Shown here: positions 9,526 through 56,782 of the stretch, piece by piece | How the letters are laid out: every line of letters starts with the position of its first letter | Position numbering within the stretch: the stretch's first letter is position 1 | Virus record (IMG/VR): IMGVR_UViG_3300035659_000003 | Span: 32,001 to 96,000 of that record | From: a virus | Direction: 5' to 3' (one strand) | DNA: 64,000 nt | The notes under the pieces: generated by a model | The model's database searches: none | The model's input: the letters and a program-made list of their open reading frames with translations, nothing else | Told to the model about the DNA's origin: nothing | Position numbers and translations under genes: made by a program

Positions 9526-10287
9526 CTAGATGATCGAATCCGGCAGATCACCGACCGCAACGCGGAAGCGGTTGATCTCCTGGAAACTCATGCCGCGAGC
9601 CCGATCTTCCAGCTCGCCCAGGTCAGGCGTGGGCTCCGACGGGGTCTTCCCCACGGTCGGGCCAACGGCCTTCTTGATGATGCCCGCCGAAACGAGAGCG
9701 GCCTTGATCTCTGCATTCTCGTCGAAGAGCTTCTTGAGGGTCGGCCCCATCTTGCTCTTCGGGATGATTGTGGCGTCGGCAGGCCAGTCCTTGGTGTCGG
9801 GAGTGATGGGAGGGTTACCTGGAACGTCCGAGTCCTTCTCGCCGAAATTGCTAGAGGCGTCGTCCTTGTCCACCTTGGCCTTGCGGGCCATACTGACCAG
9901 GCCAGGCACGTTCTTGGTGTCCTCTTCCGAACCGCTATAGCTCTCCGGCGACCCTAGATCGCTGTCGCCGTAGGGACTAAAGTCGGACTCGGTTGCGGAC
10001 TCGCCCAACTCGAACTCGTCCTCTTCGGGGGCCTCTTCGTCCTCCTCGGAGTCTTCGTCGCTGTCGAGCGCCATGACATGCTTGGTCAGGGCGGACATGG
10101 AGCGGGTAAGGTCAAGCATCAGCGTTGCCTGCTCGCGCAGGGCCTTGCTGAGCGAACTCACCTTGGTCTCTAGCGACTCAGCGGAATCCTCGTCGTCGTC
10201 CCCCTCGTCCTCGGACAGGAGAGACTCCAGGCTTTCCTCGTCATCGCCCTCGGGATTGTCTGCCAGACGTAGAAGTCTCTTATTCAT
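9526..10287 (-). CDS. capsid scaffolding protein
   Basis: Very acidic, coiled-coil/disordered 253 aa directly upstream of the MCP; carries several hydrophobic-x-K sites (LSKA, LTKH, VDKD, IKKA). Confidence 0.7.
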   Translation of the reverse strand: MNKRLLRLADNPEGDDEESLESLLSEDEGDDDEDSAESLETKVSSLSKALREQATLMLDLTRSMSALTKHVMALDSDEDSEEDEEAPEEDEFELGESATESDFSPYGDSDLGSPESYSGSEEDTKNVPGLVSMARKAKVDKDDASSNFGEKDSDVPGNPPITPDTKDWPADATIIPKSKMGPTLKKLFDENAEIKAALVSAGIIKKAVGPTVGKTPSEPTPDLGELEDRARGMSFQEINRFRVAVGDLPDSII

Positions 10288-27066: not shown

Positions 27067-27067
27067 A

Positions 27068-27262
27068 CTAGCCCTTCCTCTCCTTCTGATCGCTATCGAT
27101 CGTCCAGTTCGCGATGACATCCTCGGCGCAGCCTCCGCAGTAGCAGCCGTCGTCTATCCAGTGCACGCACCCTGAGCAGACCGCCAACCCGCAGGTCTCG
27201 CACTCGTGCTCCGGAAACTCCGCGCTGCAAAACCAGCAGGGGAACTCGCCCACGTCCATCAC
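27068..27262 (-). CDS. Cys-rich zinc-finger protein
   Basis: Four CxxC pairs in 64 aa. Confidence 0.55.
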   Translation of the reverse strand: MMDVGEFPCWFCSAEFPEHECETCGLAVCSGCVHWIDDGCYCGGCAEDVIANWTIDSDQKERKG

Positions 27263-29919: not shown

Positions 29920-32900
29920 TTATTCTGGGGATTTTTTAGGGTTCTTCCGACGAACAGGCCGGAATGTGGGCCGTGCCTTCCGATAGATCAGGAAGCAGCG
30001 GCAGTTAGACCGGCAGATCGTGCTGCCGTCTCGGGGTAGGCGGGGCATCCGGTTGGCGGGCCAGGGGCTCTGCGTGGCCATCTCCAGGCACGTAGCACAG
30101 TGCTCAGCGCCAAGGGTCAGCTTCCAGTGGGCCTTCATCTGCGGCAGGTTCTCCGAGACGGTCTGATGATACAGTCCGGCGGAGCCGTCCGCGTAGAGCT
30201 TGGCGCGCCAGATGGCCTGCTTCTCGGTCTTGACCTTGCCCGCCGCCAGATCGTCGCGGAAGCCGTCGAGGTAGTGGTGCTGATGTCTCAACTCGGCCAT
30301 GAGATTATCCCGTGCCCGCTGCCGTGCGTCCGGCGTTTCCTTGAGCCGCAGCGTCGAGGCGTAGGCCGACTTGCCATAGAGGTCATCAACCGCCGCGCGC
30401 ATCTGTGCGTGCCAGGTATCCACGTCGCCTTCGCCGCGCCACAGGGCACACGTTGCGGTCTCCATTGCCTTCTTCGTGCGCCCGATCTCCATGTTGACGC
30501 GCTCAAGCGGGGAGGGCCACCGGCGCTTGCCTCGCTTGTCCAGCTTAAAGTACACGCGGGAGGGCAGATCGGAGTCCACGGCGGTGCGGGCCTTGTTGAT
30601 GCCCATCGCTGCTAGGCGCATCAGCATCTCTGCATGCGCGATTTCCGCCAGGGTAATAGGCGCATTCCGGCTGTCCTGCACGTCCTGAGAACCAGCAACA
30701 CCCTGGTTCGTGGTGACGATCCCCGTCGTGACTTCCGGTGCGTTGCCGGTGTGGGCACGAGAATCCATCGGCTCGGTTGGCGCGCCCTTCTCAACCTCCC
30801 CACCTACGAATATCTGGATGTGCCGCCCGTCCGAGGTGGTCACGAACTTGCGGGGGGCGATCCCCAGCTCCTCACCGAAGTCCTTGTTCAGGGTATCCGC
30901 CTCGTCCTCGACGGGGTTCCACTCAAGCAGCTCCGCGATAGCGTCGTAAAGCCCCGAGAAGCGCCGCTTAAACTTAGTAGGGCTTATCGTCATGTATGCC
31001 ACGCACTCGGCGAACATCTCCGCCGAACTGTCGCGCCCGTAGTGACTCGGGAGACCGCGTGCCGTCTCCTGCGCCGCGTGGAAGGCATCGAGCCAGGTGT
31101 CAGAATTAGAGAAGCGACGCTCCGTGCCATCGTCCATGACATGAGCATACTCGTGGGCGATCACCGCCCGCATGGTGTCATAGGGGCCAGAGGGAAGCTC
31201 TCCCCCCATCGCGCTCCCCCACGACTGGGCGTCGAGGGTCAGGACACTGACCTCCGCCTCATCATATCCGACGTAGGTCATGCCCGCCGCCTTGCCCACG
31301 TCGTCTGGAGACAGCTCGCCCGCTTCTGCCAGATCTTCCATAGCACGTCTCATATCGTCGCGGGAGTAGGTGTGCCAGACCGCATTAGGTACGCCGTGCG
31401 GTGCGGGCATCAGCACCAGCACCTCAGCGACGATGGGCTGATCCTGAACGTAGACATCAGCGAAGTCATGCTGCTCGGCGATCTTGAGCGCGGTGAATAG
31501 CTCGTGGATTTTCTTCGGTATTGCCTCCCCGCCATGCCGGTTGATGTCGCGGATATGGCGAATCAGGGCGCTCCGTCGGACGTGGGCACCTCCGTGCTTG
31601 CCATGCTTCTTCTGATCATGCTTGCCTGGAAGGTGCTTCTCGACCCCACTCGCAGGCTGCAACGCGAACACATCATGCGTCTGCTTTGTCCAGTCGGCAT
31701 TATGCATGTCCTCGTCCAGCCACACGGCCTCTTGTGCGGCGAGTTCGATATTGTGATGCCGCATATCCTGCTCGAAGCGCTCCTCCCACGCCGGTAGTTC
31801 CTGCCCTCCAGCACGCCGAGCAACGACATCAATTTCCCCGCCGATGACTAGCATCTCATACTCTTCGGCGCAGCCAGGCCCTGTGCGGAACGTCGAAAAG
31901 ATCTTATCACGAGGCACGCGGGCGGCAACCAGCATCTGCTCTTCCTCATGGTGTATAGCAAAGCGCGTTGCAACCGAGTACTCGCTGGCGAAGGACGACA
32001 GGGGGTTGAGCTTAGCACGGGTGCGCGTCGGCTCATCCGCTGGTAGTGCAGATACCCAGTCCGGAATTTTCGCTGCCTCGTCCCATCCCATACCCCGCAC
32101 CAGCACGACCTCATCCATCTCCAGCTCTTTGAGAAGGGCCTGCGTGTCCTCATATACAGAGTCCACCCATGCCCGCAGAACCGGCCCGTGCTTGGAGACG
32201 ATACGGTCAATCTCGTCGGAACCATGTTCGACGTAGGCGACCGTAGTGTCCTCCACGCCGAACGCCTCTGATGCAACCCGCTGCAGTGCAACGCTCGGTG
32301 CCCGATGATCAGAACTAGATATGGCCCACGTCTTGGTCAAGTAGTAAGCGACCTTTTCCGACGAGGACAGCTCTACCCCCTTCGCCGGATCGTAGACATC
32401 GCGAAAGTGAGGAGCGAGAGTTCGTGCCGCTGCCCAGAAGGGAGCAGCCTTAGCCATCTTGTCTTCGGCGTCTGCCCACCCTTCGGCGAGAGCCATCGTC
32501 AATGTCTGCCGAACACCCGTCAGCTCATCCCGATTGCCTCCCCGAAACCGATAGTTATCCCCTTCCCGAGAAATCCTTACAGGCGAGCCGACTTTCTCAT
32601 AGTAGTCATTCAAGAAGCGAGCCGCTTCATAGGAGAGCTTGTCAAGATTCTCCGACTCCTGCTCAGGCGTTACGCCGAGCTTCCGCTCCATCCCCTTCGC
32701 CGTCCGCTCCATGATTTCCTGCTTCAGATCAGCGCGGGCGTCATCGTCCCTAACATCGATGCTATTGCCCGCCGTCAGGATACCTACCTGCTCTTCCAGC
32801 TTCGCACTGAAGCTCCTATCCTTTGCCCGCTGGCTGAGCACGCCGTCCACCGAGAATAATGCGTCCCTGATACGCACAGCAGCATTGAAGTTCTCGTAGC

Positions 32901-34884
32901 CACCCTCCTTCTTCGCCCTGCGTATCATCGCTGCAAGCGCCGTGTGAAGGCGATCACGAATGGTCTCGAGCAAGCCGTCGCCGAGGTTGGAAAATTCTGG
33001 AATGTCGCCACGAGTGACTCTCTCCAGAATCTCCCGATAAAGGTCACGTGCTTCCGAGGGGTCGAGCCAGTCCACCGCCCCCACGCGCCCCGCTGCTGCG
33101 TGGCCACGCGCACGCCCGTGCTTCTTCTGATCATGCTTGCCTGGAAGGTGCTTCTCGATCTTCTTGCTCTCCGGAATGGAGCCGGAGCCAGTCGCGCGCC
33201 CAACGTGCGGGGTCTCCGCGCCGCCCTCGGAACCCTCGTAGCCAGTCTCCTGCCCTTCTTCGGAGGTGCCCTCTTCCGGCGTGATAGGCTTGATTGCCTC
33301 GCTAGGGGTTACGTCCCCCTCAGCCAGCCGAATAACGTCCCCGCCACGGCTCATCACAACGACCTCGTGCTGGCCCATGCCCTCCAACTCAGGCAGGGCA
33401 TCCGAGAGCAGGAACACCTGATCGACGGGCAGCTTCCTGGAGACGACCGATCCGTCGCCGTATCCCTCCGCTCCTGCCCAGTCCTCGGCCACCTTCATAC
33501 TCAGCGTCCACGATTCCAGCGGACGAGGGCGATACTCCTTGCCCGCCACCAAGTCCTCGTGCATCTTCCCCGAAACACCCCTGTGCAGCTTCACTGACTT
33601 CAGCCCTGTCTGTTGCAGTGCCTTCGAGGAGGCAAGGCGTAGAGCCTTCAACACCACGGGGTTCAGTGCATGGTCGACCTTGGGGTTCGCGCCCGCGATG
33701 CCGTCGATGTAGCTATCGGCGTCGTCCGACGGAGCGTCAGGCTTTCGGGATGCCAGGTGCTCCTTGGCGGCCCTGCGCCCCAGCAAGCGGTCAACCAGGA
33801 GCGTCCCGCCATCCTTGTCCCATTCCCAGAACCACACGAGGGCAGCAGCCTCGGCCTGCTCCTGTGAGACGCCCCAGTCCTTCAGAACACGATTGAACGT
33901 CCCTCGGATGCCGTGCACCCCCCAGTCTTTCTCCCGCCCTGCTTCAGGGTCGGCCTCATAGTAATGCCCGCCACGTGGCCCCTCTTCGACGTGCTCTCCG
34001 CCTGGCGGCTCCTCGCCCTCGCCAATGTAGATGCGCCCTTTCCTGGCTTGCGCCACGTAAGAAGGGATGCCTACGCGTACGCCGACGTTCTTGGGGTGGA
34101 TGTCCTGATCCAGATCGTCTAGCTCACTCCACTCCTCGCCGTGCGCTTTCTGAATCGGCCCTTCGCTGGTCTCAACGGCCTCAATCGCCAGGATCGCGTC
34201 AGTATTGTAAACGTAATAACTGCCGAGGCTCGCCCCGTCAAATCCAGCAGCGACAGTATTGCGCGTATAGGACTGTGCATCCCGCACTCCCGCCAAATCA
34301 AAGGCACTATCATACTGAGTCAGGAATCGCCCTCTGACCTTGGCCTGCAAGATCACCATGTCTGGCCGCATCTTCCCCGTCATGGGTGCGGTGAACCACA
34401 TGCGAGCCTTTCTCGCTGACGGCGCGAACGAGATGGCGTAGTCGTTCCGGTACCGAGGGCGGATATGCTGCAGGTGGAACCCCTCCCTCAATATCGCTTC
34501 GGCGCTCGCCCGCGTCGTCCCGTGATAGAGCGTCTTCGTCTCTAGTGGCACGGGCGCGCCCCGTCGTTCAGGCACGGGCCGCTTTGGGCTAGGCTTGTCA
34601 GGCCGTGTCCACTTGCGCGCTAGGCCTTCAGACGCCGATTCTGTGGCCCTGTGGGGCGAATCCTGGCCAGTCTGTGGCGAAGGGCGACCCTTCCCGCCTA
34701 CGTCGTAATAGCGCCCGCCACGAGGCCCCTCCTCGATATTGACGCCCTTCGGGGGTTGCTCGCCAGGCTGCAGGTAAACGCGACCCTTCGCTACCTCGCG
34801 AATGACCTCCAGATTGGGATCGGGAGCGACTACGAAATCTGTGTTCCCCTGTCGGATTCTTACTCCTTCGCGCCGTCTAGCCAT
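29920..34884 (-). CDS. MuF (head morphogenesis) domain polyprotein with three ADP-ribosyltransferase-like domains and a zincin metallopeptidase
   Basis: C-terminal WKLTLGAEHCATC...LPRDGSTICRSNCRC (MuF); TLYHGT (ART, His-type); LHRG..ESWT..QHEVVV and LVRG..LSSFA..EYEMLV (ART, R-S-E type); AHEYAH..SHYG..EMFAE (zincin). Confidence 0.8.
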   Translation of the reverse strand: MARRREGVRIRQGNTDFVVAPDPNLEVIREVAKGRVYLQPGEQPPKGVNIEEGPRGGRYYDVGGKGRPSPQTGQDSPHRATESASEGLARKWTRPDKPSPKRPVPERRGAPVPLETKTLYHGTTRASAEAILREGFHLQHIRPRYRNDYAISFAPSARKARMWFTAPMTGKMRPDMVILQAKVRGRFLTQYDSAFDLAGVRDAQSYTRNTVAAGFDGASLGSYYVYNTDAILAIEAVETSEGPIQKAHGEEWSELDDLDQDIHPKNVGVRVGIPSYVAQARKGRIYIGEGEEPPGGEHVEEGPRGGHYYEADPEAGREKDWGVHGIRGTFNRVLKDWGVSQEQAEAAALVWFWEWDKDGGTLLVDRLLGRRAAKEHLASRKPDAPSDDADSYIDGIAGANPKVDHALNPVVLKALRLASSKALQQTGLKSVKLHRGVSGKMHEDLVAGKEYRPRPLESWTLSMKVAEDWAGAEGYGDGSVVSRKLPVDQVFLLSDALPELEGMGQHEVVVMSRGGDVIRLAEGDVTPSEAIKPITPEEGTSEEGQETGYEGSEGGAETPHVGRATGSGSIPESKKIEKHLPGKHDQKKHGRARGHAAAGRVGAVDWLDPSEARDLYREILERVTRGDIPEFSNLGDGLLETIRDRLHTALAAMIRRAKKEGGYENFNAAVRIRDALFSVDGVLSQRAKDRSFSAKLEEQVGILTAGNSIDVRDDDARADLKQEIMERTAKGMERKLGVTPEQESENLDKLSYEAARFLNDYYEKVGSPVRISREGDNYRFRGGNRDELTGVRQTLTMALAEGWADAEDKMAKAAPFWAAARTLAPHFRDVYDPAKGVELSSSEKVAYYLTKTWAISSSDHRAPSVALQRVASEAFGVEDTTVAYVEHGSDEIDRIVSKHGPVLRAWVDSVYEDTQALLKELEMDEVVLVRGMGWDEAAKIPDWVSALPADEPTRTRAKLNPLSSFASEYSVATRFAIHHEEEQMLVAARVPRDKIFSTFRTGPGCAEEYEMLVIGGEIDVVARRAGGQELPAWEERFEQDMRHHNIELAAQEAVWLDEDMHNADWTKQTHDVFALQPASGVEKHLPGKHDQKKHGKHGGAHVRRSALIRHIRDINRHGGEAIPKKIHELFTALKIAEQHDFADVYVQDQPIVAEVLVLMPAPHGVPNAVWHTYSRDDMRRAMEDLAEAGELSPDDVGKAAGMTYVGYDEAEVSVLTLDAQSWGSAMGGELPSGPYDTMRAVIAHEYAHVMDDGTERRFSNSDTWLDAFHAAQETARGLPSHYGRDSSAEMFAECVAYMTISPTKFKRRFSGLYDAIAELLEWNPVEDEADTLNKDFGEELGIAPRKFVTTSDGRHIQIFVGGEVEKGAPTEPMDSRAHTGNAPEVTTGIVTTNQGVAGSQDVQDSRNAPITLAEIAHAEMLMRLAAMGINKARTAVDSDLPSRVYFKLDKRGKRRWPSPLERVNMEIGRTKKAMETATCALWRGEGDVDTWHAQMRAAVDDLYGKSAYASTLRLKETPDARQRARDNLMAELRHQHHYLDGFRDDLAAGKVKTEKQAIWRAKLYADGSAGLYHQTVSENLPQMKAHWKLTLGAEHCATCLEMATQSPWPANRMPRLPRDGSTICRSNCRCFLIYRKARPTFRPVRRKNPKKSPE
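31604..33158. repeat. identical 40-bp direct repeat (31604-31643 and 33119-33158) encoding EKHLPGKHDQKKH
   Basis: tgcttcttctgatcatgcttgcctggaaggtgcttctcga present twice, 1515 bp (505 codons) apart. Confidence 0.9.
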
Positions 34885-37800
34885 TAGTTGCGCTTCCTGG
34901 CGCGTCCCCTGCCAGTCGAGTCTCGAATCGTGAATATCCGATCAGCCCGCGCCGCCGCAGTAGACCTAGTAGCTGTTGATCTAGGCAGTTGCTCCAACCG
35001 CTGATCCTTCAGGAAGAACAAGGCACCGGCTGAAATCCTGGCCTGCCCCGCATCGTCTAGCTTCTGCCATTTCCTGGTAACTGCGCCCACCTTCCCAGGT
35101 GAGTCCGCTGCGCTGTAGTCGCGCCATACGGCAGGCATGTCGGGGTTGCGGTCTACTGTGAAGCGGTCATGCGCCGGAACGTCCCCGCCGCCCCGCGTCG
35201 GGTCGTGAGAGTGCGCGGGATTCTCTTCGGTGTCGTGCTTGGCCAGCAACCTGACCTCGCCGCGTGGGGCCTCTTCGAGTCTGCTCTTGTAGTCTGACAA
35301 TGCCTCTAGCCACGCATCCAGCAAGGATTCTGCCGTCCAGTGGGGATCGGGAACCCTCTCGCCCTGCTCCTCCCCCGCGATGCGCAGGCGCACCTGGGGA
35401 ATGGGTAGACCGGACTGATGAAGCGCCACCAGGAACAGCCCGAACTCCTTGGCGCTGGTGCCGAACCAGCTAGGCGCGTCCTCTAGCATCTTGTCGTACG
35501 CCTCGTTCGGCTGGGCTCCGCGCTTGACGTAGCGCTCGTAGATGGCAACCTGCTGCTGCACCTCATCCGTCTCCCACGGCGCGGTCTTGTCAGTGGCCTT
35601 TTTCAGCCCGAATCGCCATACCTTATTCACTTCTGCCAGATACTCCATGACAGCGTATGCCACCCGCATCGCGGGATCATGATCGTCATATATCCCGAAC
35701 ATGATGGGAAGGAACATCTCGGCCTGGTGACCAAACGATATCATCGTATCGATAGCGATTGCCTGCGAGCGGCGATCCGCGTAGCGATATCGCCTCAAGT
35801 CCTGGCGCACAATCTCGTCGAACTCTTCGGCCCAAAAATCGGCCTTGCTTTCGGCGGCAGGGTCGTCTGTCCCCACCGCCCATTCTCGCAAGCGGCGAGG
35901 AGCAGCTTCGGCAACGCGCTCTGCGACGCCGAACAACCGATCAACATCGACGTCGCTCGCCTGTCCTCTAGCCAAACGAGCATATTGCTCCAGAAAATCG
36001 GACATCGCTTCGAGTTGCTTGGGGTATTTCGTATTCCTGACCGCGTCCGCCAACTCTGGCACAGCGTCCACTAGCCTGTGCTGCGTCGGATCGTGCGAGT
36101 GCCCTGGGTTCTCCTCAGTCTCGTGCTTGCTGACCTTGCCGCCCTTGACGGGGTGCACCCAGATGATGTCGTCCTTGTTGTCCTTCTCCCACTTCGTGAA
36201 GCAAGCGTCACAGAACCACGCGATAGCCATGCCCTCGGCCCACTTCACTTCCTTCGTCGGCGGCTTATCGCAGTCCATGCACTTATCGCGCCTGGGGCGC
36301 GCCTTACTGGTCACGCCGATATCCTGCGTAACGGCACCGGACGTAGGCGTCGAATCTCCGATCCCGCCCGCCTTAACCTGCAGCGAGTCGGCCTGTTGAA
36401 CGTCCTCCAGCATCTGGATGGCCTGCTCCTCGCCAATGGCCTCCGCCACAGCCTCTACCTTTTCCTTAAGCTCCTCGGCGGAATCCGTGTCCCCGTCCGG
36501 CAGGGTCGGCCAGCGGTCATCCGCCAGCAGGCGCAGGTCTGCGTCTCCGAGTTCTCCTAGCCCCTCCATAATACGCGCGACCAGCTTGACCCGCTCCGGC
36601 ACCTCGCCCTTGGCCAGCAGCGCCGCGTCGTCCGCCGGAACCTTACGGGTTGCCAGGCCCAGGGACTCGACCTTCTTGCGGAAGGCGTCTAGCGCGTCGG
36701 TGATGGCGTCCGAGAGGTCAATCCGCTCCTTGCGCGTTAGGTGCCCCAGCGCCCGCAGGCGATCCATTGCGTCCGTGTAGGACTGATGTATCTTGCTCTC
36801 CGCGATGTCAATCAGCGTCGTCTCGGCCTTGTCGACCTTCCCGCCACAGGTTAGGCAAGACGTCCGGCGGGCGTCGGCGGACTTGGAGAGCACCACCAGT
36901 TTCGCATCTTGGTTTACGCCCAATTCGCAAATGGTTATTTCGTAAAATACTATGCGTGAGATCAGCCAGAAGCACTTCCCGTCCTGGCACGTGTAGTGAC
37001 GGCTCTCCAGCGGGGCATCGCCGGAGATGGAGAACGAGGCCAGCTTGCCATCCTCGATGTCCTTGATTACCTGGTCGACGATCGGCGGGCGGTTCGGGTC
37101 GGTGCGTATCTTGATCACGCAGAACAGCCCGATGTCGTCCACCGTGGTCTTGAAGACCTGCCCAGTCTTGGGGTGCGTCCACTGTGGCAGCACCTCGCCC
37201 ACCTGGACGTTGCTGTGGAGCAGCATCGCGTTCCGGTATTTCGGCTCGGCCAGGAAGCGCACCAGGTCTTCCCGCATCGCCTCCTTGGTGATCAGGTGGT
37301 GCTCCTTGTCGATCACCTGTGGCGAAGCGTACCCGCCGACGACGTACTCCTTCTCCTCGTCGTCCTCGGCCTTGTAGAGCGTGTGCACCGCGCCATAGGC
37401 CATCCGCGTGCCCTGTGGGACGGCCTTGGTCAGCACCTCGGGGGTGTAAGGTTCACCGTCCGGCGAAAGGGCCGCTTGTAGTGAACACGTGCCGCCCTTG
37501 CAGGCCGCGTTGTATTCCTGGTACTCCGTCCCCTCGCCCGTCTCCGGTGCTACGATTGAGGTGTCCTGCGCCGATGCGGAGTGAGTGTCACCCTGCTTAG
37601 CGGTATAATCTGTGTGCAGTTTGTCGCCGCTGTGTGGACTTTCTGCACGCGTAATGTACCGCGCAGCCTCGAAGCCCTTCTGAAACGCCTCGCCGTGCCA
37701 TCTCTGCTCGTGCTTCTCGATCTTGTCGGACGGGTCGGTGATTAGGACGCCGATTACCTTCACGACATGCCCGTAGGCACGCATGTGGGCGGGCGCGGTG

Positions 37801-40687: not shown

Positions 40688-41209
40688 GGCTACCGTTCCG
40701 CTGCCCCGTCGAACAATGATGCCCCATCGCGCGTCCTCCGTAACGTTGAAGCCCGCATCACGCAGGGCCTGCGTTGCCCGCGACAAAAGCCGCGCGTAGC
40801 GCTCGCCGTCGTAAACGGTCTGATGGAGCTGAAGCTTGTATTCGCCCTCCGCCCACTTCGTTACATACAGACCATCGCGCCGAGTTGCCTTACCAGGTTT
40901 CTGCCTAACTCGATACTTCTCCTGTGGATCGCGCTCGTATTTTGTTGACACAGGCAGCCCTGCCGCCTCCAACGCACTGTGCAGATTTCCACCTGTAGGC
41001 TTCGGCGCGGCCCTAGTGGGGTGGGGGGCCTGCGTCGGGTCGTGGGAGTGTTCGGGGTTCTCCTCGGTGTCGTGCTTCTTGACGCGACGCTTCCCCAAAG
41101 GACGATCTACGCCGCGCAGGGCGTAGGTGCTGCGGTCGGAATCTGTGCCGTAGTGCGCGAGCTTCTCCGCGCGCTTGGCAATCTCGCTTAGCGACAGTCG
41201 GCGGGCCAT
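40028..41209 (-). CDS. two-module protein with a C-terminal PD-(D/E)xK nuclease-like domain
   Basis: TGEIGEKIA...FPVDVM...VVEVKAG restriction-endonuclease-fold motif behind a GPRGG tag; first module behind a KHDTEENP tag. Confidence 0.7.
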   Translation of the reverse strand: MARRLSLSEIAKRAEKLAHYGTDSDRSTYALRGVDRPLGKRRVKKHDTEENPEHSHDPTQAPHPTRAAPKPTGGNLHSALEAAGLPVSTKYERDPQEKYRVRQKPGKATRRDGLYVTKWAEGEYKLQLHQTVYDGERYARLLSRATQALRDAGFNVTEDARWGIIVRRGSGTVAKQFKVYLKPGEKPPQGVHVQEGPRGGLYYESVHDPSAGEPEPQERVFGGKPVALAHKPSKLETGEIGEKIALQLLLDQGFGDARRLSVEEAQNFPVDVMADHHVVEVKAGLVSNGESAQHWRATIGQPGPTEAAWLKAAAPEEKAAWNRVKGKATIERKQQVLMAIGRERGIRLKAKTYGIILNTDTRQADVYVIDGFHERVGWKSELAQHSYVGTVSF

Positions 41210-41220
41210 GAGTCGGCCCC

Positions 41221-41919
41221 CTAGCAGCAGTGCTTACGTTCGAGACGCTTCTCGATGTGCTCTAGGTCTACGATGACGCCGCGCTTAAGTTGCTTCTCTA
41301 GTTTCTGAGCCACAGCGCGCAACCTTGTGCCGACCTCGTTAATGACGATCCGCTTTTCCTCGTAGGCCACAACGGGCTCCGCGTCGGGCCGTGCCGCTGC
41401 CTTCCGGATCGGGGCGAGGTCGATATCCTCACTCCCGCATCCAGGACAGGAACGTCGGCCTGCCGGAATCTTGCGCCCGCACTCCTGGCACCAGAACTGC
41501 TTGTCGATCTTTGCTTTGTCCATCTTGTTCTCCCGTGCGAGATGATTGTGGGCCGCCCGCAACCAGTCCAGCCCGCCTCGCCTGTCTTCCCTCATAAAGT
41601 TCGTCGCCGCTGCGTGCAGAAGTTGGCGGACTTCCTCCGACACCTTGCCACGCAAGTCATCCCGCCGCTGCAGAATCACGCCTGCCATTCGCTTCGGGCC
41701 TATAAGAGCCATGTGATCTTCTATCTCAGGCAGGGACAGCCCCTTCATGGGGTTCCGCGCCGCACGCGGCTTCGAGAAGGACTCAGAGGGTGACCGCAGC
41801 CCGTGCACGGCCTCGCCCGCGTGGGTGTGGTGCTTCCGCGCCTCCTCGTGGCAGTAGTCGTGACCGCCGTGACGGTGGTGACCAGGGGGACAAGGCTTAT
41901 CGACGAGGCGATCAGGCAT
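41221..41919 (-). CDS. modular head-cluster protein with His/Cys tag and zinc ribbon
   Basis: CPPGHHRHGGHDYCH; CQECG..CPGCG; RBS GGAG before MPDRLVDK. Confidence 0.65.
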   Translation of the reverse strand: MPDRLVDKPCPPGHHRHGGHDYCHEEARKHHTHAGEAVHGLRSPSESFSKPRAARNPMKGLSLPEIEDHMALIGPKRMAGVILQRRDDLRGKVSEEVRQLLHAAATNFMREDRRGGLDWLRAAHNHLARENKMDKAKIDKQFWCQECGRKIPAGRRSCPGCGSEDIDLAPIRKAAARPDAEPVVAYEEKRIVINEVGTRLRAVAQKLEKQLKRGVIVDLEHIEKRLERKHCC

Positions 41920-44653
41920 TCGCTCTCCCGCCACCTGGACGGTTCTGCCGCTCAGTACCCATTCCAGGTGTGCGCCACGCACGCTGTGCCTGTGCCCTGC
42001 GCCCAAGCTCGGCGTTGACAGCCTTCAGACGATCGATATACTCCTGATGTACGTCGGGGGCCAGTTGCCTGGCCCGATCGCCCTTCAGGTAGTTGACCAG
42101 CGCGTCGTAGTGACGCGAGAGCTTCTTATCGTCCATGCGCTGCACGTCTGCGTGGGCCTGATCGCCCGCCTCGGGCTTCGGCTTCACCTTGCTTGCCGCA
42201 CGCCGCAGGATGTCGACGACCACCTTGGTCTGCATTCTCTCCTGCGGAGAGTCATCCTTGCCCGCCATGATACGATCCTTGGCGTGCTGCTCTATCCGAG
42301 CGGCTGCTCCGGCAAGGCGCTTGTAGGCGTCCGCCGGATCGCGGGTATCCTTGAGCCCCTCCTTGAAGTGGGCCAGAACCCGCTCCAACCCGCCAACGCC
42401 CAGAGCGCGGGCCTGCACAACAGCCTCGTCTAGAACGCCGTGGGCGTCCTCCAAGGCACCGGCAGGCTTCATCATTGTCTCCCCTCGGTGCGCGCGCTTC
42501 ATGGGGTGGCAGTAGTCATAGGGCTCGTGCTTGTGCCATCCGGCGGGGCAACCGCCGACGGCCTTCTTGATCTCATCAATCGCCTTGTGCGCCTGCTGAT
42601 AGGTTTCGTGAGCGCGCGTCCCGTAGGGAGGAACCTCATGGGTGCGGCTGACTGCAGGAGGCACGTCGGGCCTCGGCTTACCTACGTGACGGTGACTCGC
42701 AGACGGGGGTTTTGGCTTCAGTGGCTCTAGGGACAGGCGCTTATCGATCTTCTCAACCTCTTCCGCGATCTTCTGGTAGAGGTGCTTCGGCCCCCACTCC
42801 TGGGGATACTCGTCAGGGTGCTGCTTATCCAAGTGCCGCCGCCTCTTCTCGCGCGCGTCGCGCCGCCGCTCAATGTCGCCGTGAATCTTGTCACGCTGGC
42901 TCTGCAGCCGCTGTGCCGTCCGCGCGCGATCGTGCGTCTCTGCCCTGCGTGCTGCGTAAGACTGTGCGCTGCCATACGGGGAATGAGAATGCTCTGGGTT
43001 CAAGTCACTCACATGCTTTTCCACACGGCTCAGGATTGTCTCGCAGTCGTCGTGAAGTGCGCCAGTCTCGTGCTTTTTCAAGGGATATGACGACCTCGGC
43101 CCAGACACAGACTGAGGGCCTGGCCCCAATATCGGGCGCTTCACGCCTTCCGCCTTCTCCTCGTGACTGTGGACGAACGTTCCGCCCTTGTGGTCATGTG
43201 CTACTCCGTGGTGGCGGTGCTCGCGGGCTGTCCGACCGAACTTGGTGATGGGCTCGTACTCGGCCCGCCCGCCGCGCTCAGGCTTCGGATCGAAGATGGC
43301 CGTGTGGAGCCTGCGATTGGCTTCTGCCTCCGACTCGGATTTGCGCGGGTCGTGAGAGTGACTAGGATTCTCCTCGGTCTCGTGCTTTGCCAGCCGCTGC
43401 CCGTGCGCCGTCCCGCGCTGCTGTCGTGGCTTGGTCTGGCCGTGGGGCTTGCGCGAAGGCTTGACGCCCTTGATCTTCGTGCTCCGCCGCGACTTCTTCT
43501 TATCCAAGTCGTGGTGCTCCTGTGCGTGCTCGGAGAGAATCTCCGCAACGGACTGAAGCGTCCTACCGATCATAGTAACGTCCGCGAGTTCGGGGGTAGC
43601 CTCATCTGTGCCGCCACCGTTCTTTTTCACCCGCTTCGGCACGAACTTAGCAGGGCCGACATCGGGGGAGTCAGGAGCAACTGTTCTCCCGAACGCCCTA
43701 TCCTTGCGCCGCGTCTCCCTGGCTGCGTCCGCTGGTGTCCAAGGATGTGATCTAATATTGGCGGCTCGCCAGGCCCCAGGGTCTGGGTGCGTCGGTCTAG
43801 CCTTCTTAACGGGCTGCGGCTTGGCCTGCGGCCCACGAGGGTGCCAGCCCCAGGCAGGCGCATCAGGGCCTAGCTCGTGCTTCTCGAGTGCCCTCAGCGT
43901 CCTTGTATCGTGCCACTCTGCCACACGCGCGACATAAGGACGGTTCTTCTTGTAGTAATCGAGAATCTGCTTCCGCGCGTCCTTCTCGTTCTTGGCCTTC
44001 ACATTCTTAGTCGACGTCTGCTGCTCTGGCCCCTTGACGGTATACTCCACGTAGCCAAAGTGCACGCGGTAGGTTTTGAGGTCGTCCTTCTTCTTCCCCT
44101 CCGCGCCGCCGCCCTCCTTTGTCGGGTCGTGAGAGTGCTCGGGATTCTCTTCAGTCTCGTGCTTCTTCATCGGCTTGTTACGCGGATTGAACCGTGAACC
44201 TGCCCACCCGCTCGGAGGCTTGCTCGTGTCACCAGGAGCCCTCCCTGCGTAGCGCTCTTCTGCAGAGGGCTTCTTAGGCAGCTCCCCACGCTTAGGATCA
44301 GCAGGGCTCGGAACAAAATGCTGCTTACCGACCCGCCCAGGCCCCCTAGCGAGCCCTGGGTGTGGCGCGGCCAACTGACGACGCGGTTGCGCGGGGGCAA
44401 CACCAGAAAAACCCTTGCCTTGATAGACCTTGGCCGGAATACCCTGCGGCTGTGGGTTCTGCACCGGCCCCTTCGGGACGGTCGGCTTCTTACCGAAGAG
44501 CTTGTTGATTTCAGTTATCCCCGCCCGAACCGCATCCAGAGCCTTATCCTCCACTTTATGTTTGATCGAGCCACAGTAGGCATCGGGATCGTCCTTGTCG
44601 CGGTTGCGCGATACGCAGTCATCGAAGTTGGTGTAACCGGCAAACGGCATCAC
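41912..44653 (-). CDS. basic, His/Pro-rich modular polyprotein
   Basis: 913 aa; N-terminal PFAGYTNFDDCV..DKDDPDAYC module; about 20 x-x-K|H/A/Q boundaries; three His tags. Confidence 0.7.
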   Translation of the reverse strand: MMPFAGYTNFDDCVSRNRDKDDPDAYCGSIKHKVEDKALDAVRAGITEINKLFGKKPTVPKGPVQNPQPQGIPAKVYQGKGFSGVAPAQPRRQLAAPHPGLARGPGRVGKQHFVPSPADPKRGELPKKPSAEERYAGRAPGDTSKPPSGWAGSRFNPRNKPMKKHETEENPEHSHDPTKEGGGAEGKKKDDLKTYRVHFGYVEYTVKGPEQQTSTKNVKAKNEKDARKQILDYYKKNRPYVARVAEWHDTRTLRALEKHELGPDAPAWGWHPRGPQAKPQPVKKARPTHPDPGAWRAANIRSHPWTPADAARETRRKDRAFGRTVAPDSPDVGPAKFVPKRVKKNGGGTDEATPELADVTMIGRTLQSVAEILSEHAQEHHDLDKKKSRRSTKIKGVKPSRKPHGQTKPRQQRGTAHGQRLAKHETEENPSHSHDPRKSESEAEANRRLHTAIFDPKPERGGRAEYEPITKFGRTAREHRHHGVAHDHKGGTFVHSHEEKAEGVKRPILGPGPQSVSGPRSSYPLKKHETGALHDDCETILSRVEKHVSDLNPEHSHSPYGSAQSYAARRAETHDRARTAQRLQSQRDKIHGDIERRRDAREKRRRHLDKQHPDEYPQEWGPKHLYQKIAEEVEKIDKRLSLEPLKPKPPSASHRHVGKPRPDVPPAVSRTHEVPPYGTRAHETYQQAHKAIDEIKKAVGGCPAGWHKHEPYDYCHPMKRAHRGETMMKPAGALEDAHGVLDEAVVQARALGVGGLERVLAHFKEGLKDTRDPADAYKRLAGAAARIEQHAKDRIMAGKDDSPQERMQTKVVVDILRRAASKVKPKPEAGDQAHADVQRMDDKKLSRHYDALVNYLKGDRARQLAPDVHQEYIDRLKAVNAELGRRAQAQRAWRTPGMGTERQNRPGGGRANA

Positions 44654-44659
44654 TAGCTC

Positions 44660-47200
44660 CTACGGCAGGGCGTGAATCCGTGATGCCCCGCGCCGCCTAC
44701 CCTCAGCCATTGCCTGCCGCTTGGCGTCGGCGTACGAGCCGTGGATGAAGTGAGGCTTAGGGTCGTCGTCATACTGGAATGCCCATCCGCCCGTGCCTCT
44801 CGGCTTCTTCCCGTGGCTCCACTCAAAGCGCTCGGTTGCGACGTGCCTCGGCCCAGCCCCCTTGCCTGCGCGCGGGTCGTGCTCGCTGTGCGGGCTGTTC
44901 GGCGTGTCGTGCTTCTTTACTGGTGCGGTGGGGTCTGTCGGCACGCGCCGAGTCGGGGTGACGCCCCAGTCGCTACCAGATGTCCATACCTTACCGGATG
45001 GGCTCGACGCAGGGGCGGCCCCTGGCTTACGCTTCTCCAGCGCATCTGTTGCCGCGCGTAGCTCAGCCTGAGCCTTAGCGACTTCAGAATTCATCTTTTC
45101 GGCTTTTCTCTCCACGGGCACCTCTCGCGGGTATCCCGCTGCAGGCCGCTTGCCCGTCCACGCCGGACTAGAAGAGGTGTGCTCAATCTGCCCCATACTT
45201 CCCATTTGCGGGTGATAGGCACGAGCATGACTGTGCGTGTCGCCTGTCTCTTGATGCGTGTGCTCGCGTCCCTGGACGCCGTGCGGGTCAGCCAGCGGAG
45301 TCTTGCGAGCCTTGGAGAACGCGGGGCTCATCTGATCGCGCTTATGCATTGACCCACCAGGAAGCGTGTCCTGGGGCGGGGGCTTTGTAACCCCTGCCTT
45401 GGGGTCTCTGAAGTGCCGCTGCAGATCACGCTGTGCGGACGACATCCCACCCACCAGCTTCTTCGGCTTAGGCGCAGGGCCATAAGGTGCCCCGCCGTGC
45501 GGGTGAGGGCCATGCTCCTGTGGAGCGTCGTGCTTGTCTACCTCGGCCTTCTTCGCATTAGCCATTCCACCACGAGCGTGACTGGCCGAGTGGCCGAACT
45601 TGCGCTCGTGCTCACTGTATCCAGAACCATAAGGCCCAGGCGTCCGGCTTTCCGGCGCGCGGGGCTGCGGCGGAGAAATCTTCACCTTCCCGTGCGCGCC
45701 GTAATCGTGCTCGTGGGTCTCCCCACCAGGCCCCATGTGACCGTGCAACCTTCCCTGTCCGCCGCGAGGCCCTCCGTGGGGGGTCTCCTTCTCCAGCGCG
45801 GACGTTGCCGCACGCAGGGTTGCCTGTGCCTTGGCAAACGTAGGGCTCATCTTCGTGACTAGTGGCTGGACTTCGGTATGTGGCGTAAACTTCCGAGATG
45901 CGGGATGCTTTTGCGTCACAGGGTGACCCTCGGACGCCCCCTCGTGGCGATGCTGCCCAGGAGGACTGCCGTGCGTTGTGCGAAGCTTGCTGGGATCATA
46001 GGTGTCCTTCTGCACCTTCGCCTTCTTCGTCGGCGTAGCGGATGGGCGGGTTATTTTATAAGGATGATAATCCGGAGCCGGTACTTCGCTAGTGCCGCGC
46101 TGCCTGCGAAACGGGCTGCGCGTCGAAGGGGCGTACCCGCCCTGGTGCCTCACCGACATCGTTCCCTGCTCACCTTGGGCCTTCATCGCTGGTTCCGATC
46201 GCGTGGGTGTCGGGGATGGATGGCTCCCAGGGCGCGGCCCAGGGACAGGAGCGACTGTAGACTGGGGCTGTGGAGTTGCGGGCTCGGCCTTCTTCGCAGG
46301 AGAGAAGCGTCCAGGGTAGTCCTGGGGATTCTTCTTGGGGCGAGGCGGGTCTGGCTTGGCACGCGGCCCCGCGCGATTACCGCCACCGCGTCCCGTCAGC
46401 CATCGCAAACGCTCTGGGGACGAGCGAGGTGCGGGAGCATCCTCGGCCTTGTCCATAAGGTAGCTTGAGGTGCTCTTCTGCCCCGTGCTGGTGGGCTTAC
46501 GCGGACGGCCAACCGGCTTGAAGCCGGAGGTCAGCGGCTGCGGATGTGTGTGGCGCTCGCCCTCGGGTGCTCGACTTCTCGATCCGAAGTGCGGGTGCGT
46601 CTGTGGACGCGAGTAGCGCTTCTTGTCCCCATAATGCTTCTCAAGCTCCTCGTCCTCGGCCTTGTTCATGCCCCCTCGGATCGAATGTGGGGCTCTCGTC
46701 GCGTAAGAGTCAGCACTAGTTCCCTTCTTCGACTTAGGCGGCCAGTGCGGAATACCAACTTCCTTGTCCTGGGCCTTCCACATGGCCTCGCGCCGTTTCG
46801 GTTCGCGCCGGACGGTCTTGCCCTTATCCAGGTCGCCTACGGCCCGAACGGACTTCCGCAGCGCAGATAGCGCCTTAGCCAACTCCACCGTATCCGGCAG
46901 CTCCTCACCGTCCTCGGCCTTGCCCACAACTTCCTTCAGGAACAGCTCCAGGGCCTGGTTGAGCTTCGCACCCTTGGCGAGCCCAGGCATCTGAAAGATA
47001 CCAGCACCCGTCACGGCGTAGTAGGAACCGCCCTCGCGCCCCCACAACTCGGCATAGTTCGCCCCGTTGTCGGCGGACACGTAATGAACAATTCCGCCCT
47101 CGGCACCCTTGGACAGGTTCGGCCAGCGCGATGCGGTGCTGAGTGTGATGCCCATAGGCTGCACAGCCTTCGCGAGCCGACTCAAAAATGTCTGGATCAT
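44660..47200 (-). CDS. basic, low-complexity modular polyprotein
   Basis: 846 aa; more than 20 hydrophobic-x-K motifs spaced about 20-50 aa apart; P/G/R/H-rich. Confidence 0.7.
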   Translation of the reverse strand: MIQTFLSRLAKAVQPMGITLSTASRWPNLSKGAEGGIVHYVSADNGANYAELWGREGGSYYAVTGAGIFQMPGLAKGAKLNQALELFLKEVVGKAEDGEELPDTVELAKALSALRKSVRAVGDLDKGKTVRREPKRREAMWKAQDKEVGIPHWPPKSKKGTSADSYATRAPHSIRGGMNKAEDEELEKHYGDKKRYSRPQTHPHFGSRSRAPEGERHTHPQPLTSGFKPVGRPRKPTSTGQKSTSSYLMDKAEDAPAPRSSPERLRWLTGRGGGNRAGPRAKPDPPRPKKNPQDYPGRFSPAKKAEPATPQPQSTVAPVPGPRPGSHPSPTPTRSEPAMKAQGEQGTMSVRHQGGYAPSTRSPFRRQRGTSEVPAPDYHPYKITRPSATPTKKAKVQKDTYDPSKLRTTHGSPPGQHRHEGASEGHPVTQKHPASRKFTPHTEVQPLVTKMSPTFAKAQATLRAATSALEKETPHGGPRGGQGRLHGHMGPGGETHEHDYGAHGKVKISPPQPRAPESRTPGPYGSGYSEHERKFGHSASHARGGMANAKKAEVDKHDAPQEHGPHPHGGAPYGPAPKPKKLVGGMSSAQRDLQRHFRDPKAGVTKPPPQDTLPGGSMHKRDQMSPAFSKARKTPLADPHGVQGREHTHQETGDTHSHARAYHPQMGSMGQIEHTSSSPAWTGKRPAAGYPREVPVERKAEKMNSEVAKAQAELRAATDALEKRKPGAAPASSPSGKVWTSGSDWGVTPTRRVPTDPTAPVKKHDTPNSPHSEHDPRAGKGAGPRHVATERFEWSHGKKPRGTGGWAFQYDDDPKPHFIHGSYADAKRQAMAEGRRRGASRIHALP

Positions 47201-54991: not shown

Positions 54992-56782
54992 CTAGAACAG
55001 CCCGCCGCCCTGTCCGCCGCCGCCCTGTCCGCCGCCCATCCCAGGCATGCCGCCGCCCATCTTCTCCTGCTGCTTCTGCTGCTCCGCCATCGAGAGCACC
55101 TTGCCGCTGTACGTAAACTTCTCCGTGTCGGGATCGTACTCGACGCCGAAGCCCATCATGGCCATCGTCTGGGCGAACATGCCCTTCTGCTGCAGGAGGT
55201 TCAGGCGCATGAGTTCGCTCTGCTCTTCCGGTATTGCTAGCTGCAGCTTCCAGTCGGTGATGCCGAAGGCATCCATGAGCGAGGGAAAGACCTCGGTGTG
55301 GTAGCTGCGCTGTGCGCCCTCGACCACGCGGCTCATGACGACGAGCTGCTGGCTTTCGCTGTTGAGCCCCCCCACGCCCGCCACGCTGCTCATCCAGATC
55401 TGGCTGACGCCATAGAGTCCGGCAACCCGCTCGCGAATCTCGTCGCGGACAGGCAGGTAGTTCAGCTCGTCCAGGCTGTAGGCGAAACGGACGAACTCGG
55501 TCTTGCCCTGGCCGGTCTTGCTGTTGACCGCGATCCAGGGGATGTAGTGCGGGTCTTGCTGCATCTTGGCGGCCATCTCCGCCTTGCGGCTCTCCAGGCC
55601 CTGCACGTCGTCCGTCACCGTGGCAATGATACCCTGCGGCACGCGCCGCTCGTAGAAGTAGTCGTAGAGGTAGCGATCCATCCCGATAAGCGTCAGCGCC
55701 TTTTCGTAGACACTGAGGATCGGCGGGTAGCCATATAGCTCGGTGGGCGTGTACCGGCTCCAGTGAGTCACCTCGTCGGATGTCAGGTAGAGCACCTTGC
55801 TCTGCGCGCTGCCATATCCGCCCTGCAGGTACTGCTCGTTGTACTTGTACCATACGGGGAACGTCTGCAGCCCGCACTCGGGGCACTTCCCCTTCCACTC
55901 GTACTCCCAGCCCTCGCCCGCCGGAACCTCCAACAGGTTGTCGCGGTGGAGCAGGCAAATGTGGTGCCGCTGGCCAGGGATGCCTCGCTGGTCGAGGTCA
56001 AACTCCACCAGCACGGGGTCTAGACGAAAGATCTGGCGTGGCTCGCTGCGAAGCTTGTAGGAGCCGTCCTCCTGGGGGATGCCGTAATAGTCCTTGCTGA
56101 TGAGGATGAAGGCGTCGTCAACAACGTTCAGGTCGTCCTCGCACTCCCTCAGCACAACTTCCAGGCTCTGCCCGAAGTGGTTACAGCGCCGAAGGAACTT
56201 GTCAAACCGATCCCGCTGAGTCTCGTCAGGAGCATCCAGCTCGGGATGCTGGAGATGCTTCTTACCCTCCTCGTCTACCTTGACGACCGCCTCCCCGTCG
56301 TCGTCGCGGAGCGGCTCGGAGCATTTGTAGTCTATCTTCTTGGCCTCTGCCTCTGAGAATTCGCGCCTGCAAACAGGACACTTCCACTCAAAGGCGGGCT
56401 CCCATTCCAGCCCGCGCCGGAAGATCTCGTTTCGAAGGTGCGTGACCGCCGTGCGCACGTCCGCGTTGTTGTTGGCAATCACATAGAGATCAAGCAAGTA
56501 GCGCCGGTCAGCGATGTACTGGCGCTTGCCCTTAAAACCATAATCATTAATTCCTATAAGTCCCGTAGACGATTCTTGTACACTCGCAGCTTTGAGCATA
56601 AGCTGTGCTACAAAGCGCTCCGACGCCGTCCCCCCGCCGCTAGTGTTCATCGAATTCGCGATCGTGGCGAACGTGTCGTGAGCCGGATGCCCCGCAGGGA
56701 ACGGGTTTGCTCCGGCCTGCGCCGTCAGAACAAGAGGCTCCGCCTTGCGGATAATCTCACTCAGATTGCCTCTGATGCCCAT
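54992..56782 (-). CDS. portal protein
   Basis: 596 aa; DDLNVVDDAFILI, LYGYPPI, YFYERRVPQGII, RERVAGLYGVSQIW, GGLNSESQQ portal-like motifs. Confidence 0.85.
   Translation of the reverse strand: MGIRGNLSEIIRKAEPLVLTAQAGANPFPAGHPAHDTFATIANSMNTSGGGTASERFVAQLMLKAASVQESSTGLIGINDYGFKGKRQYIADRRYLLDLYVIANNNADVRTAVTHLRNEIFRRGLEWEPAFEWKCPVCRREFSEAEAKKIDYKCSEPLRDDDGEAVVKVDEEGKKHLQHPELDAPDETQRDRFDKFLRRCNHFGQSLEVVLRECEDDLNVVDDAFILISKDYYGIPQEDGSYKLRSEPRQIFRLDPVLVEFDLDQRGIPGQRHHICLLHRDNLLEVPAGEGWEYEWKGKCPECGLQTFPVWYKYNEQYLQGGYGSAQSKVLYLTSDEVTHWSRYTPTELYGYPPILSVYEKALTLIGMDRYLYDYFYERRVPQGIIATVTDDVQGLESRKAEMAAKMQQDPHYIPWIAVNSKTGQGKTEFVRFAYSLDELNYLPVRDEIRERVAGLYGVSQIWMSSVAGVGGLNSESQQLVVMSRVVEGAQRSYHTEVFPSLMDAFGITDWKLQLAIPEEQSELMRLNLLQQKGMFAQTMAMMGFGVEYDPDTEKFTYSGKVLSMAEQQKQQEKMGGGMPGMGGGQGGGGQGGGLF

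Follow-up and report, generated by a model that had tools for sequence, protein, structure and literature searches.

The 64,000-nucleotide stretch of DNA analysed here (the window) runs from base 32001 to base 96000 of an IMG/VR virus record that is 109,910 bp long and carries direct terminal repeats. It holds a cluster of six consecutive genes, g1 to g6, in which short repeated peptide tags stand among enzyme-like and other modules, one of them an HK97-type prohead protease. Nearly all window genes lie on the minus strand; the portal, major capsid protein (MCP), scaffold and neck genes share one strand with the cluster, which is situated between the portal gene and the distant MCP gene (Table 1). 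An original prediction, made from the sequence alone, had described six coupled genes at this place, and six minus-strand open reading frames (ORFs) were found there with the same coordinates. They are translationally coupled: one base (ATGA) is common to g4/g5 and to g5/g6, g2 and g3 overlap by 8 nt, and the remaining intergenic gaps are 6 and 11 nt. The starts of g3 and g5 are backed by orthologues in a close relative, Rel1 (metagenome contigs L115/L116, 87-96% identical in shared parts), and that of g2 rests on another genome, G001 (its MCP is 71% and its protease 62% identical), in which residue 1 of a 596-aa ORF aligns with g2 residue 2.

Self-comparison of the sequences defines three tag families. 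Tag A, K|H[DE]TEENPxHSHDP (the bar marks the putative cut), is present in six exact copies in g2, g4 and g5 and in three degenerate ones in g1 and g2; tag B, [IV]EK|HLPGKHDQKKHG, in two copies, both in g6; and tag C, [VI]Y[LI]xPGExPPxGxxVxxGPRGGxYY, in four copies in g4, g5 and g6. Tags A and B are linear and His-rich, begin K|H and have a His/Asp-rich xHD core. Tag C is a beta mini-domain of ~28 residues, predicted from nine sequences to be three-stranded (mean pLDDT 78); in structure it comes closest to proteins of HVTV-1 and of uncultured archaeal viruses (34-39% identity, probability 0.92-1.0), with E-values that are weak for 45 residues. Three of the four tag C copies come directly after K[AG]R, and in g4 the Lys of VAK| sits three residues upstream (VAK|QFK-VY). 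Tag B2 is a predicted coil (AF2 pLDDT 37-40) that directly follows an ADP-ribosyltransferase (ART) domain with pLDDT 84-98. The reuse of peptide tags had been predicted, and these are true repeats confined to the cluster genes, none of the three families being found by self-comparison in MCP, portal or scaffold. Tags A and C searched as DNA patterns in IMG/VR gave 0 matches, tblastn of phages with a 22-aa tag B peptide gave no match, and the MuF/protease of Arthrobacter phage Salgado carries no tag. Synonymous differences at 59 codon pairs separate the six exact copies of tag A, which is therefore upheld at the protein level and not by recent duplication or gene conversion. The NPxH of tag A was also considered as an FlhB/EscU-type autocleavage motif, as was the acid-labile D-P bond, and no supporting context was found for either. 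A further repeat, the Cys/His motif CPxGxH[KR]HxxxDYCH, is common to the g2 C-terminus (42506-42550) and the g3 N-terminus (41848-41892), its copies flanking the 8-nt g2/g3 overlap.

Table 1. Genes, tags and domains of the cluster and of the associated head genes (window positions).
Feature	Position	Strand	Remarks
g1	44660..47200	-	846 aa
g2	41912..44653	-	913 aa; 912 aa if the ATG at 44650 is used (probable)
g3	41221..41919	-	232 aa, ATG at 41919
g4	40028..41209	-	393 aa
g5	34884..40028	-	1714 aa, ATG at 40028
g6	29920..34884	-	1654 aa
Degenerate tag A in g1	44873-44914	-	VKK|HDTPNSPHSEHDP
Exact tag A copies in g2	44123-44164, 43346-43387	-	
Degenerate tag A copies in g2	43046-43075, 42977-43018	-	
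Tag A in g4	41036-41077	-	
Tag C in g4	40601-40675	-	
Tag C in g5	39465-39539	-	
Tags A1, A2, A3 in g5	38013-38054, 36087-36128, 35199-35240	-	
HK97-type (S78) prohead protease domain	36882..37370	-	g5 residues 887-1049
Tags C1, C2 in g6	34705-34779, 33958-34032	-	
Tags B1, B2 in g6	33115-33153, 31600-31638	-	
ADP-ribosyltransferase (ART) domain	31810..32379	-	g6 residues 836-1025
Zincin cassette	30883..31635	-	g6 residues 1084-1334; HEYAH at 1244
MuF-like C-terminal domain	29977..30498	-	g6 residues 1463-1636; CxxC...NCRC motif; assignment tentative
Major capsid protein (MCP)	8086..9507	-	473 aa; QLNK12|A near N-terminus; proposed substrate
Acidic scaffold-like protein	9526..10287	-	253 aa, directly upstream of MCP
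Portal protein	54992..56782	-	596 aa; IRK13|AE near N-terminus

Each of the six genes had been described as a string of unrelated modules. This does not fit g1 and g2, which are basic (net +53 and +51, respectively), Pro/Gly/His-rich, low-complexity chains with no match in Pfam, PHROG or NCBIfam; of the 21 hydrophobic-x-K|[AHDGSQ] sites in g1, 6 read K|AE[DPVK]. Besides its N-terminal Cys/His motif, g3 has a zinc ribbon (CxxC...CxxC). The order in g4 is a 44-aa leader, tag A, a module (61-175), tag C and a C-terminal module (208-393; 40031-40588) that may be PD-(D/E)xK-like, a tentative reading from Atlas leads, so that the nuclease domain originally proposed is weak. In g5 a leader and tag C precede a module with HExxH (HETCH at residue 315), tag A1, the protease, a helical and zinc-ribbon part, tag A2, a module, tag A3 and a tail. 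In g6 a leader is followed by tag C1, module 1, tag C2, module 2, tag B1, a helical part with the ART domain, tag B2, the zincin, a linker and the MuF-like C-terminus. Both proteins thus show the two to 15 unrelated domains per chain of polyvalent proteins: HExxH module, protease and zinc ribbon in g5; ART, zincin, MuF-like part and further modules in g6.

The enzymatic assignments differ in strength. Three ART calls had been made, of which one, g6 836-1025, is a solid prediction of an ART fold by sequence and model: it matches Pfam DRAT above the cut-off of 25 (27.0 bits, E 3.1e-6), its AF2 model has pLDDT 84-98, and the Foldseek list is almost wholly ARTs (TreX, iota Ia, CDTa, ExoS and cholera A1 among the best), with a best E of 0.017 and none <= 0.001. 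Of the others, one ART-like stretch, at E 0.017, is a weak call, and Pfam gives the first g6 module no match. The zincin cassette of g6 is headed by tag B2 and ends at LNK1334|D; it has weak Pfam M90/ATLF matches (E 0.003-0.006), and its AF2 model is of low confidence from a shallow alignment. The zincin calls in g5 and g6, drawn from the HExxH motifs and these M90/ATLF matches, are weak. Similarly, the MuF domain claimed in the cluster is a weak call. The g6 C-terminus matches PHROG 24776, a family of unknown function (E 2.8e-15); an Atlas lead at rank 21 (score 0.93) carries PF04233 on 60% of the members of its Atlas cluster, and hhalign against a five-sequence MuF profile places CxxC and NCRC in register, yet at a probability of 6% (E 0.006) and with no Pfam match at E <= 1.

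A prohead protease had been predicted within the cluster, and three libraries agree on one of HK97 type: PHROG 23555 'head maturation protease' (E 1.1e-10), Pfam S78 (PF04586; E 6.3e-4, 20.4 bits, below the cut-off of 21) and NCBIfam proheadase_HK97 (TIGR01543; E 1.1e-5, 25.6 bits, below the cut-off of 59). Though both curated cut-offs are missed, the sequence points to membership of MEROPS S78. The columns of HK97 gp4 His65 and Ser114 are invariant in a six-sequence alignment and correspond to an intact g5 His938 (37215-37217) and Ser1000 (FSISG; 37029-37031). Identity is 31% to HCTV-1 gp111, the HCTV-1 homologue being an annotated head maturation protease that adjoins the MCP gene. The domain is bounded by LYK886|A and LSK1049|S, with VDK1067|A coming next, and it is the sole HK97-type protease of the phage. 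HK97 itself has the same protease family with the same His and Ser; there, however, gp4 is a free 225-aa protein with gp5 and itself as known substrates and no cargo chain. The HK97 cut in gp5, at FNK103|S104, has a sequence that fits hydrophobic-x-K|small. In Rel1, the g5 orthologue carries an intein-like insertion of 290 aa (L115:5571-6440) directly after the catalytic His, beginning CLRAG... and ending ...IIYHN then S (insertion point ~37214/37215 in the window); part of it resembles a 155-aa protein of the present phage, from which the insertion itself is absent.

Comparison with relatives supports the construction of these chains from cassettes. Six major insertions or deletions (indels), the intein excluded, separate Rel1 from this phage; three of the six are Lys-flanked on both sides and the others end at or near tags. 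Rel1 lacks g4 61-207 (module and tag C), a gap that opens exactly where tag A ends and closes exactly where tag C ends; g5 1241-1474, flanked by TSK|A and LKK|A; g6 1084-1365 (tag B2 and zincin), between GVEK| and GEVEK|; and the first g6 module with tag C2. Conversely, it has an extra unit of 'tag A + 79 aa' at K1597 of g5 and a 41-aa insertion, containing AKK|H, at g6 520. The C-terminal third of g2 is 89-94% identical in Rel1, and the g3 orthologue is 63% identical over its full length. Rel1 also bears an extra 545-aa gene between its g5 and g6 orthologues (L115:8374-10011, +), absent from this genome, whose product has tail-fibre-like repeats similar to window 16073-18130. In G001, the corresponding 17-kb cluster has ORFs of 385, 2095, 780, 356, 596 and 1210 aa, and its common parts with the present cluster are only the protease, four tag C, three tag B (after VEK|, VDK| and LSK|), a tag A variant (IRK|HNTPRSPHRLHDPR) and 41 residues of g2, the N-terminal 41 aa, which are 80% identical to the start of the 596-aa ORF. 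G001 has in addition a tag of its own, FTHEHDxYPRHxI, in three copies: in two a K stands a few residues ahead of the tag, and the remaining one opens with QKALSP, as in LQK|ALSPFTHEHD. A standalone PI3/PI4-kinase-like gene of this phage (window 51945-52670, -; 241 aa) encodes a protein 31% identical to residues 525-671 of the 780-aa tag-bearing polyprotein of G001 (G001 80053-82395, L110); one payload therefore exists both free and chained. In a further relative, Rel2 (59% identity), the zincin and MuF unit comes after tag C, not tag B.

Homology boundaries lead to the same joints. A phmmer search with g6 579-1334 among 1.84 billion protein representatives returned 1492 matches. Most of the matches listed cover the ART stretch, and the zincin-type ones start at query 503-507 and end at 748-755, that is, at g6 1081-1085 and 1326-1333, boundaries that on this alignment evidence correspond to K1083| and K1334|. 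Because of three independent lines, namely the Rel1 indels, the G001 comparison and these homology boundaries, the joints are taken to be real module boundaries, and it is very probable that the cluster has a cassette architecture of tag plus payload with its joints at Lys sites or tags. Module swapping in related genomes, which had been proposed as a check, was thus seen both as whole-cassette indels in Rel1 and as payload turnover against G001 with tags kept. Such cassette turnover is unusually fast, within what would be an anti-host arsenal, the tags and protease being constant while nearly every payload differs at 71% MCP identity. Judged by their sequences, the cluster products are clear members of the phage-type polyvalent head proteins, each a chain of tag and payload cassettes.

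The original prediction had placed module boundaries at a loose motif, [ILVMFA]xK[AHDGSQ], and had listed individual sites, every one of which exists. It had also reported the motif in other head proteins, and there too it is present: the MCP has LNK|A and LQK|D, the portal has IRK|A and the scaffold has several sites. Against counts expected from shuffles, and with the other 130 ORFs for comparison, the loose motif is enriched in the six proteins overall (76 observed, 46.0 expected, z 4.8), being only slightly above shuffles elsewhere (129 vs 106). This overall enrichment is due to the tags and g1: g1 alone has 21 against 6.7, masking the tags leaves 62 against 43.4, and with g1 left out as well the count is 42 against 36.2 (p 0.17), so that the enrichment stands for the set and not beyond tags and g1. 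The strong signal is narrower than the loose motif, which is partly meaningful: hydrophobic-x-K-H occurs 16 times against 3.1 in the cluster and 6 against 5.2 in the rest of the genome. Hydrophobic-x-K-[AG] in the cluster reaches 33 against 14.6, and K-A-E 9 against 3.4, mainly in g1. Position-specific enrichment around all Lys residues is weak, and Lys makes up 5.2-9.5% of residues in the six proteins vs 3.5% elsewhere. Indel and homology boundaries fall on Lys residues of such sites; some other matches lie inside folded domains, such as VIK|D inside the protease. The motif over-predicts, and the 'dozens' of products forecast from it were overstated.

With regard to function, we infer a course of packaging, cleavage, release and delivery with the DNA. 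The precursors would enter the prohead together with the protease and the MuF-like domain; the embedded protease would then sever the chains at hydrophobic-x-K joints, directly behind the Lys and in the way that HK97 gp4 processes gp5, freeing itself, the enzymes and the basic peptides of g1 and g2; and the freed products would exit with the DNA. That the joints are cleaved in this manner is, on balance, probable from the sequence evidence. Near the MCP N-terminus, three genomes have such a sequence in the same place (QLNK|A here, MVNK|G in G001, QLAK|A in HCTV-1).

Tag B extends these considerations to other phages. Its back-translated pattern was found in 27 IMG/VR contigs with GC contents of 39-70%; in 185,579 genomes it had 72 matches, mostly out-of-frame chance, with ~8 true copies, a few of them in actinobacterial, Chloroflexi and sphingomonad genomes. 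By Pfam, tag B in many other phages separates a portal or MuF domain from an ART or other domain, in arrangements such as portal-tagB-x-tagB-ART and MuF-tagB(624)-ART(649-817), and S78 proteases adjoin the tag-B genes. Tandem ART cassettes with tag B every ~484 residues are present in the proteins P0010 (three copies) and P0012 (four), both encoded on one 102-kb contig. An extreme tandem array is P0011, a 7059-aa metagenomic protein with 16 copies of the tag B variant K|HGTGDQSPHGNWAR, in which 11 ART-like stretches were matched. The homologues of the cluster proteins are all metagenomic. In one tag-B phage (L004:1961-3550, +) the MuF gene is apparently interrupted by an intein (Pfam Intein_splicing E 7e-7, with a Phage_Mu_F fragment). 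The residue that precedes tag B was tallied over ~40 true copies as K 22 times, A 7, R 4, F 4 and E 3; copies within a genome share it (A/A, K/K, K/K, R/R, E/E, K x5), P2-P5 vary, and position -3 is mostly L/I/V. The protease family was rejected as the cause of these differences, the A, R and K genomes all having Pfam S78 proteases. The MCP position aligned with the HK97 cut reads AAEK|AA where tags follow K and GYR|GT where they follow R (n = 2); in a third genome, L084, with tags after Ala, the MCP boundary is ambiguous. This match of MCP boundary and pre-tag residue in aligned sequences is suggestive.

Several observations weigh against cleavage at the joints. The residue before tag B is not always Lys though the proteases are all S78. 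Some tags stand behind six-residue leaders (MSEFEK|H, MTLHEF|H), from which cutting would achieve little; this suggests that the tag has a function of its own. Two of the six Rel1 indels end at neither Lys nor tag edge but 15-26 aa beyond tag C, and the loose motif is at expectation once tags and g1 are set aside. The genome encodes a second protease, which is ClpP-like. N4 virion RNA polymerase (vRNAP) and other large packaged proteins stay uncut (PMC5512222). Moreover, the putative cut would leave the conserved tag, a prime-side element, attached to the cargo, unlike the T4 address. The description of the cargo as 'tag-addressed' is consequently the weakest part of the original prediction: the conserved residues follow Lys, and the T4 address precedes the cut and is removed. 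A T4-type capsid targeting sequence was not what was found, conservation being mainly after Lys, most tags internal, and the leaders 6 to 44 aa long and not alike. Because the conserved part lies after the cut, some leaders have six residues and tag C is folded, the tags may act after cleavage or independently of it.

The foremost alternative dispenses with cutting. Tags and Lys sites would be conserved recombination linkers, exchange joints comparable to the VENN and PT motifs of polymorphic toxins, and the polyproteins would be packaged to act as intact multi-enzyme chains. Indels with their end-points in short recurring sequences (GVEK/GEVEK, tag A/tag A, tag C) and the extreme turnover of payloads while tags persist are what such joints would produce, and uncut packaged giants are known in N4 vRNAP, ArdC and TraC1 (PMC5512222). 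However, the many synonymous differences between tag copies place their identity at the protein and not the DNA level, and a linker needs fewer than 8-12 conserved residues. Nor does recombination explain a genome-specific residue before tag B beside variable P2-P5, and the protease would stay tethered in the middle of 1714 aa. This alternative is held to be unlikely.

Cleavage by another enzyme is a poorer prospect still. The cutter would be the phage's own zincin metallopeptidase (MPTase) domains or the ClpP-like protease (window 26458-27120, -; Pfam CLP_protease E 1.7e-15, also matching PHROG 'head maturation protease' families), and the tags would have another role, for instance in binding metal or in docking onto the portal, DNA or the inside of the capsid. 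There are two HExxH modules, in g5 and g6; the ClpP-family protein is conserved in Rel1 (72% identity); the tags are His/Asp-rich with their xHD core; and the fold of the tag C mini-domain fits docking rather than cutting. Yet Rel1 is without the g6 zincin cassette and keeps the tags, many tag-B proteins elsewhere have no zincin match, and the ClpP-like gene has nucleotide-metabolism neighbours (dATP/dGTP diphosphohydrolase, NT5C-like), not head genes. In addition, hydrophobic-x-P1, where P1 is the residue before the cut, is a known pattern of the prohead protease superfamily, as I/LxE in T4 (PMC12991175) and AxE in SPN3US (PMC10052503). That the Lys motif is a by-product of composition and paralogous tag duplication, uninformative on cutting, is very improbable, since the high Lys content, the near-expected masked count and the weak enrichment around all Lys residues are set against a Lys with a hydrophobic residue at -3 that, in several genomes, stands ahead of tags as unrelated as A, B and E and close to tag C, and against homology and indel boundaries that land on these Lys residues.

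A broader proposal, rather doubtful at present, builds on cleavage at the joints. Tailed phages would generally mark the junctions of their head-packaged cargo by a code, hydrophobic-x-P1|tag, in which P1 is matched to the prohead protease of each phage and the tag stays at the new N-terminus as a retention, ejection or activation signal; candidate tag families are the His-rich DQxxHG family (HLPGKHDQxxHG, HGTGDQSPHGNW), HDTEENPxHSHDP, FTHEHDxYPRH and the GPRGGxYY mini-domain. If this were true, any payload behind a tag would be loaded, released and injected. Should the joints be protease sites, the mature set of effectors that thousands of uncultured phages inject would be predictable from sequence alone. 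This would explain how polyvalent proteins are activated, a point open since their description in 2017, and would yield a transferable 'tag + payload' rule by which foreign proteins could be loaded into capsids of HK97 type.

The closest described system is that of the polyvalent proteins of Iyer 2017 (PMC5512222), giant 2-15-domain proteins of portal-terminase phages beside head genes that combine ART, zincin MPTase, MuF, nuclease and other effectors and are predicted to be packaged and injected. The present cluster, linked to virion genes in a portal-terminase phage, agrees with them. That work proposes MPTase autoprocessing (polyvalent proteins, P1 DdrB) and describes neither junction tags nor prohead-protease sites; 'linker' never occurs in its text and 'prohead protease' once. 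Here, by contrast, the prohead protease itself is a module, and short tags with Lys mark each joint. The internal proteins and Alt of T4 (PMC3012670, PMC9958956) are likewise cargo enzymes, an ART included, that are loaded in the prohead, trimmed by gp21 at a hydrophobic-x-P1 site with Glu as P1 (I/LxE, PMC12991175) and injected. In T4, however, the cargo genes are small and separate, and an address of ~10 residues before the cut is discarded, whereas here the cargo is chained, the conserved part follows Lys and there are several tag families. In phiKZ, 201phi2-1 and SPN3US (PMC10052503, PMC7411985), many head-internal proteins are cut by gp175/gp245 at AxE, with multiple cuts per precursor and a protease that autocleaves; the differences are N-terminal propeptides removed from separate proteins in these phages, a T4-like protease family and no description of tandem cassettes. 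Phage P1 packages its Dar anti-restriction cargo in the head, including the ~2000-aa DarB, and its prohead protease, Pro, trims off the N-terminus of DarA (PMC12810830, PMC9024508), but these are separate proteins loaded in a defined order, with no repeated junction tags described. MuF polymorphic toxins (Jamet 2017, PMC5576092; Zhang 2012, PMC3482391) join MuF to a variable toxin with predicted capsid delivery. They have an N-terminal MuF, one C-terminal toxin and no mention of a junction motif, whereas in g6 the MuF-like part is C-terminal (1463-1636) with the enzymes N-terminal to it; tag B in other phages sits at exactly the MuF-toxin junction. A full-text literature search for the tag strings returned no paper. 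The suggestion that this grammar might be undescribed must be narrowed: packaged polyvalent proteins and protease processing were known (PMC5512222; T4, P1, phiKZ/SPN3US), and the concept extends them, while the junction tags and the Lys-site grammar alone appear unreported and are the new part.

The head genes raise the matter of the host. Matches of portal, MCP and protease in the phage collection are only to haloarchaeal Druskaviridae (26%, 24% and 31% identity, respectively) and a Methanomassiliicoccales virus, and the scaffold-like protein is 37% identical to the product of the gene upstream of the G001 MCP. Among Druskaviridae, HCTV-1 and HVTV-1 share the order of portal, giant proteins (1046, 675 and 1210 aa), MuF, protease and MCP, and HCTV-1 has two tag C-like elements, one right behind an N-terminal LEK| in its zeta-toxin protein, gp109, and one within gp106. 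They differ in identities of only 24-31%, acidic halophile proteomes, the absence of tags A and B and an archaeal host. Because the replication and lysis genes here are of bacterial type (a PolA fusion with uracil-DNA glycosylase (UDG), DnaB, bacterial RecA, M23 peptidase) and the proteome is not acidic, the idea of an archaeal virus was rejected and the record is treated as a bacteriophage with a bacterial host. The head module (portal, MCP, protease, tag C) is nevertheless closest to archaeal Druskaviridae and uncultured archaeal viruses, and these similarities suggest that the phage is a bacterial branch of a head lineage that is otherwise found for the most part in viruses of archaea.

Immediately upstream of g1, and outside the tag system, window 47273-47971 (-) encodes a protein of 232 aa that starts with a hydrophobic segment resembling a signal sequence and shows a weak HExxH match of matrixin type (E 0.001).

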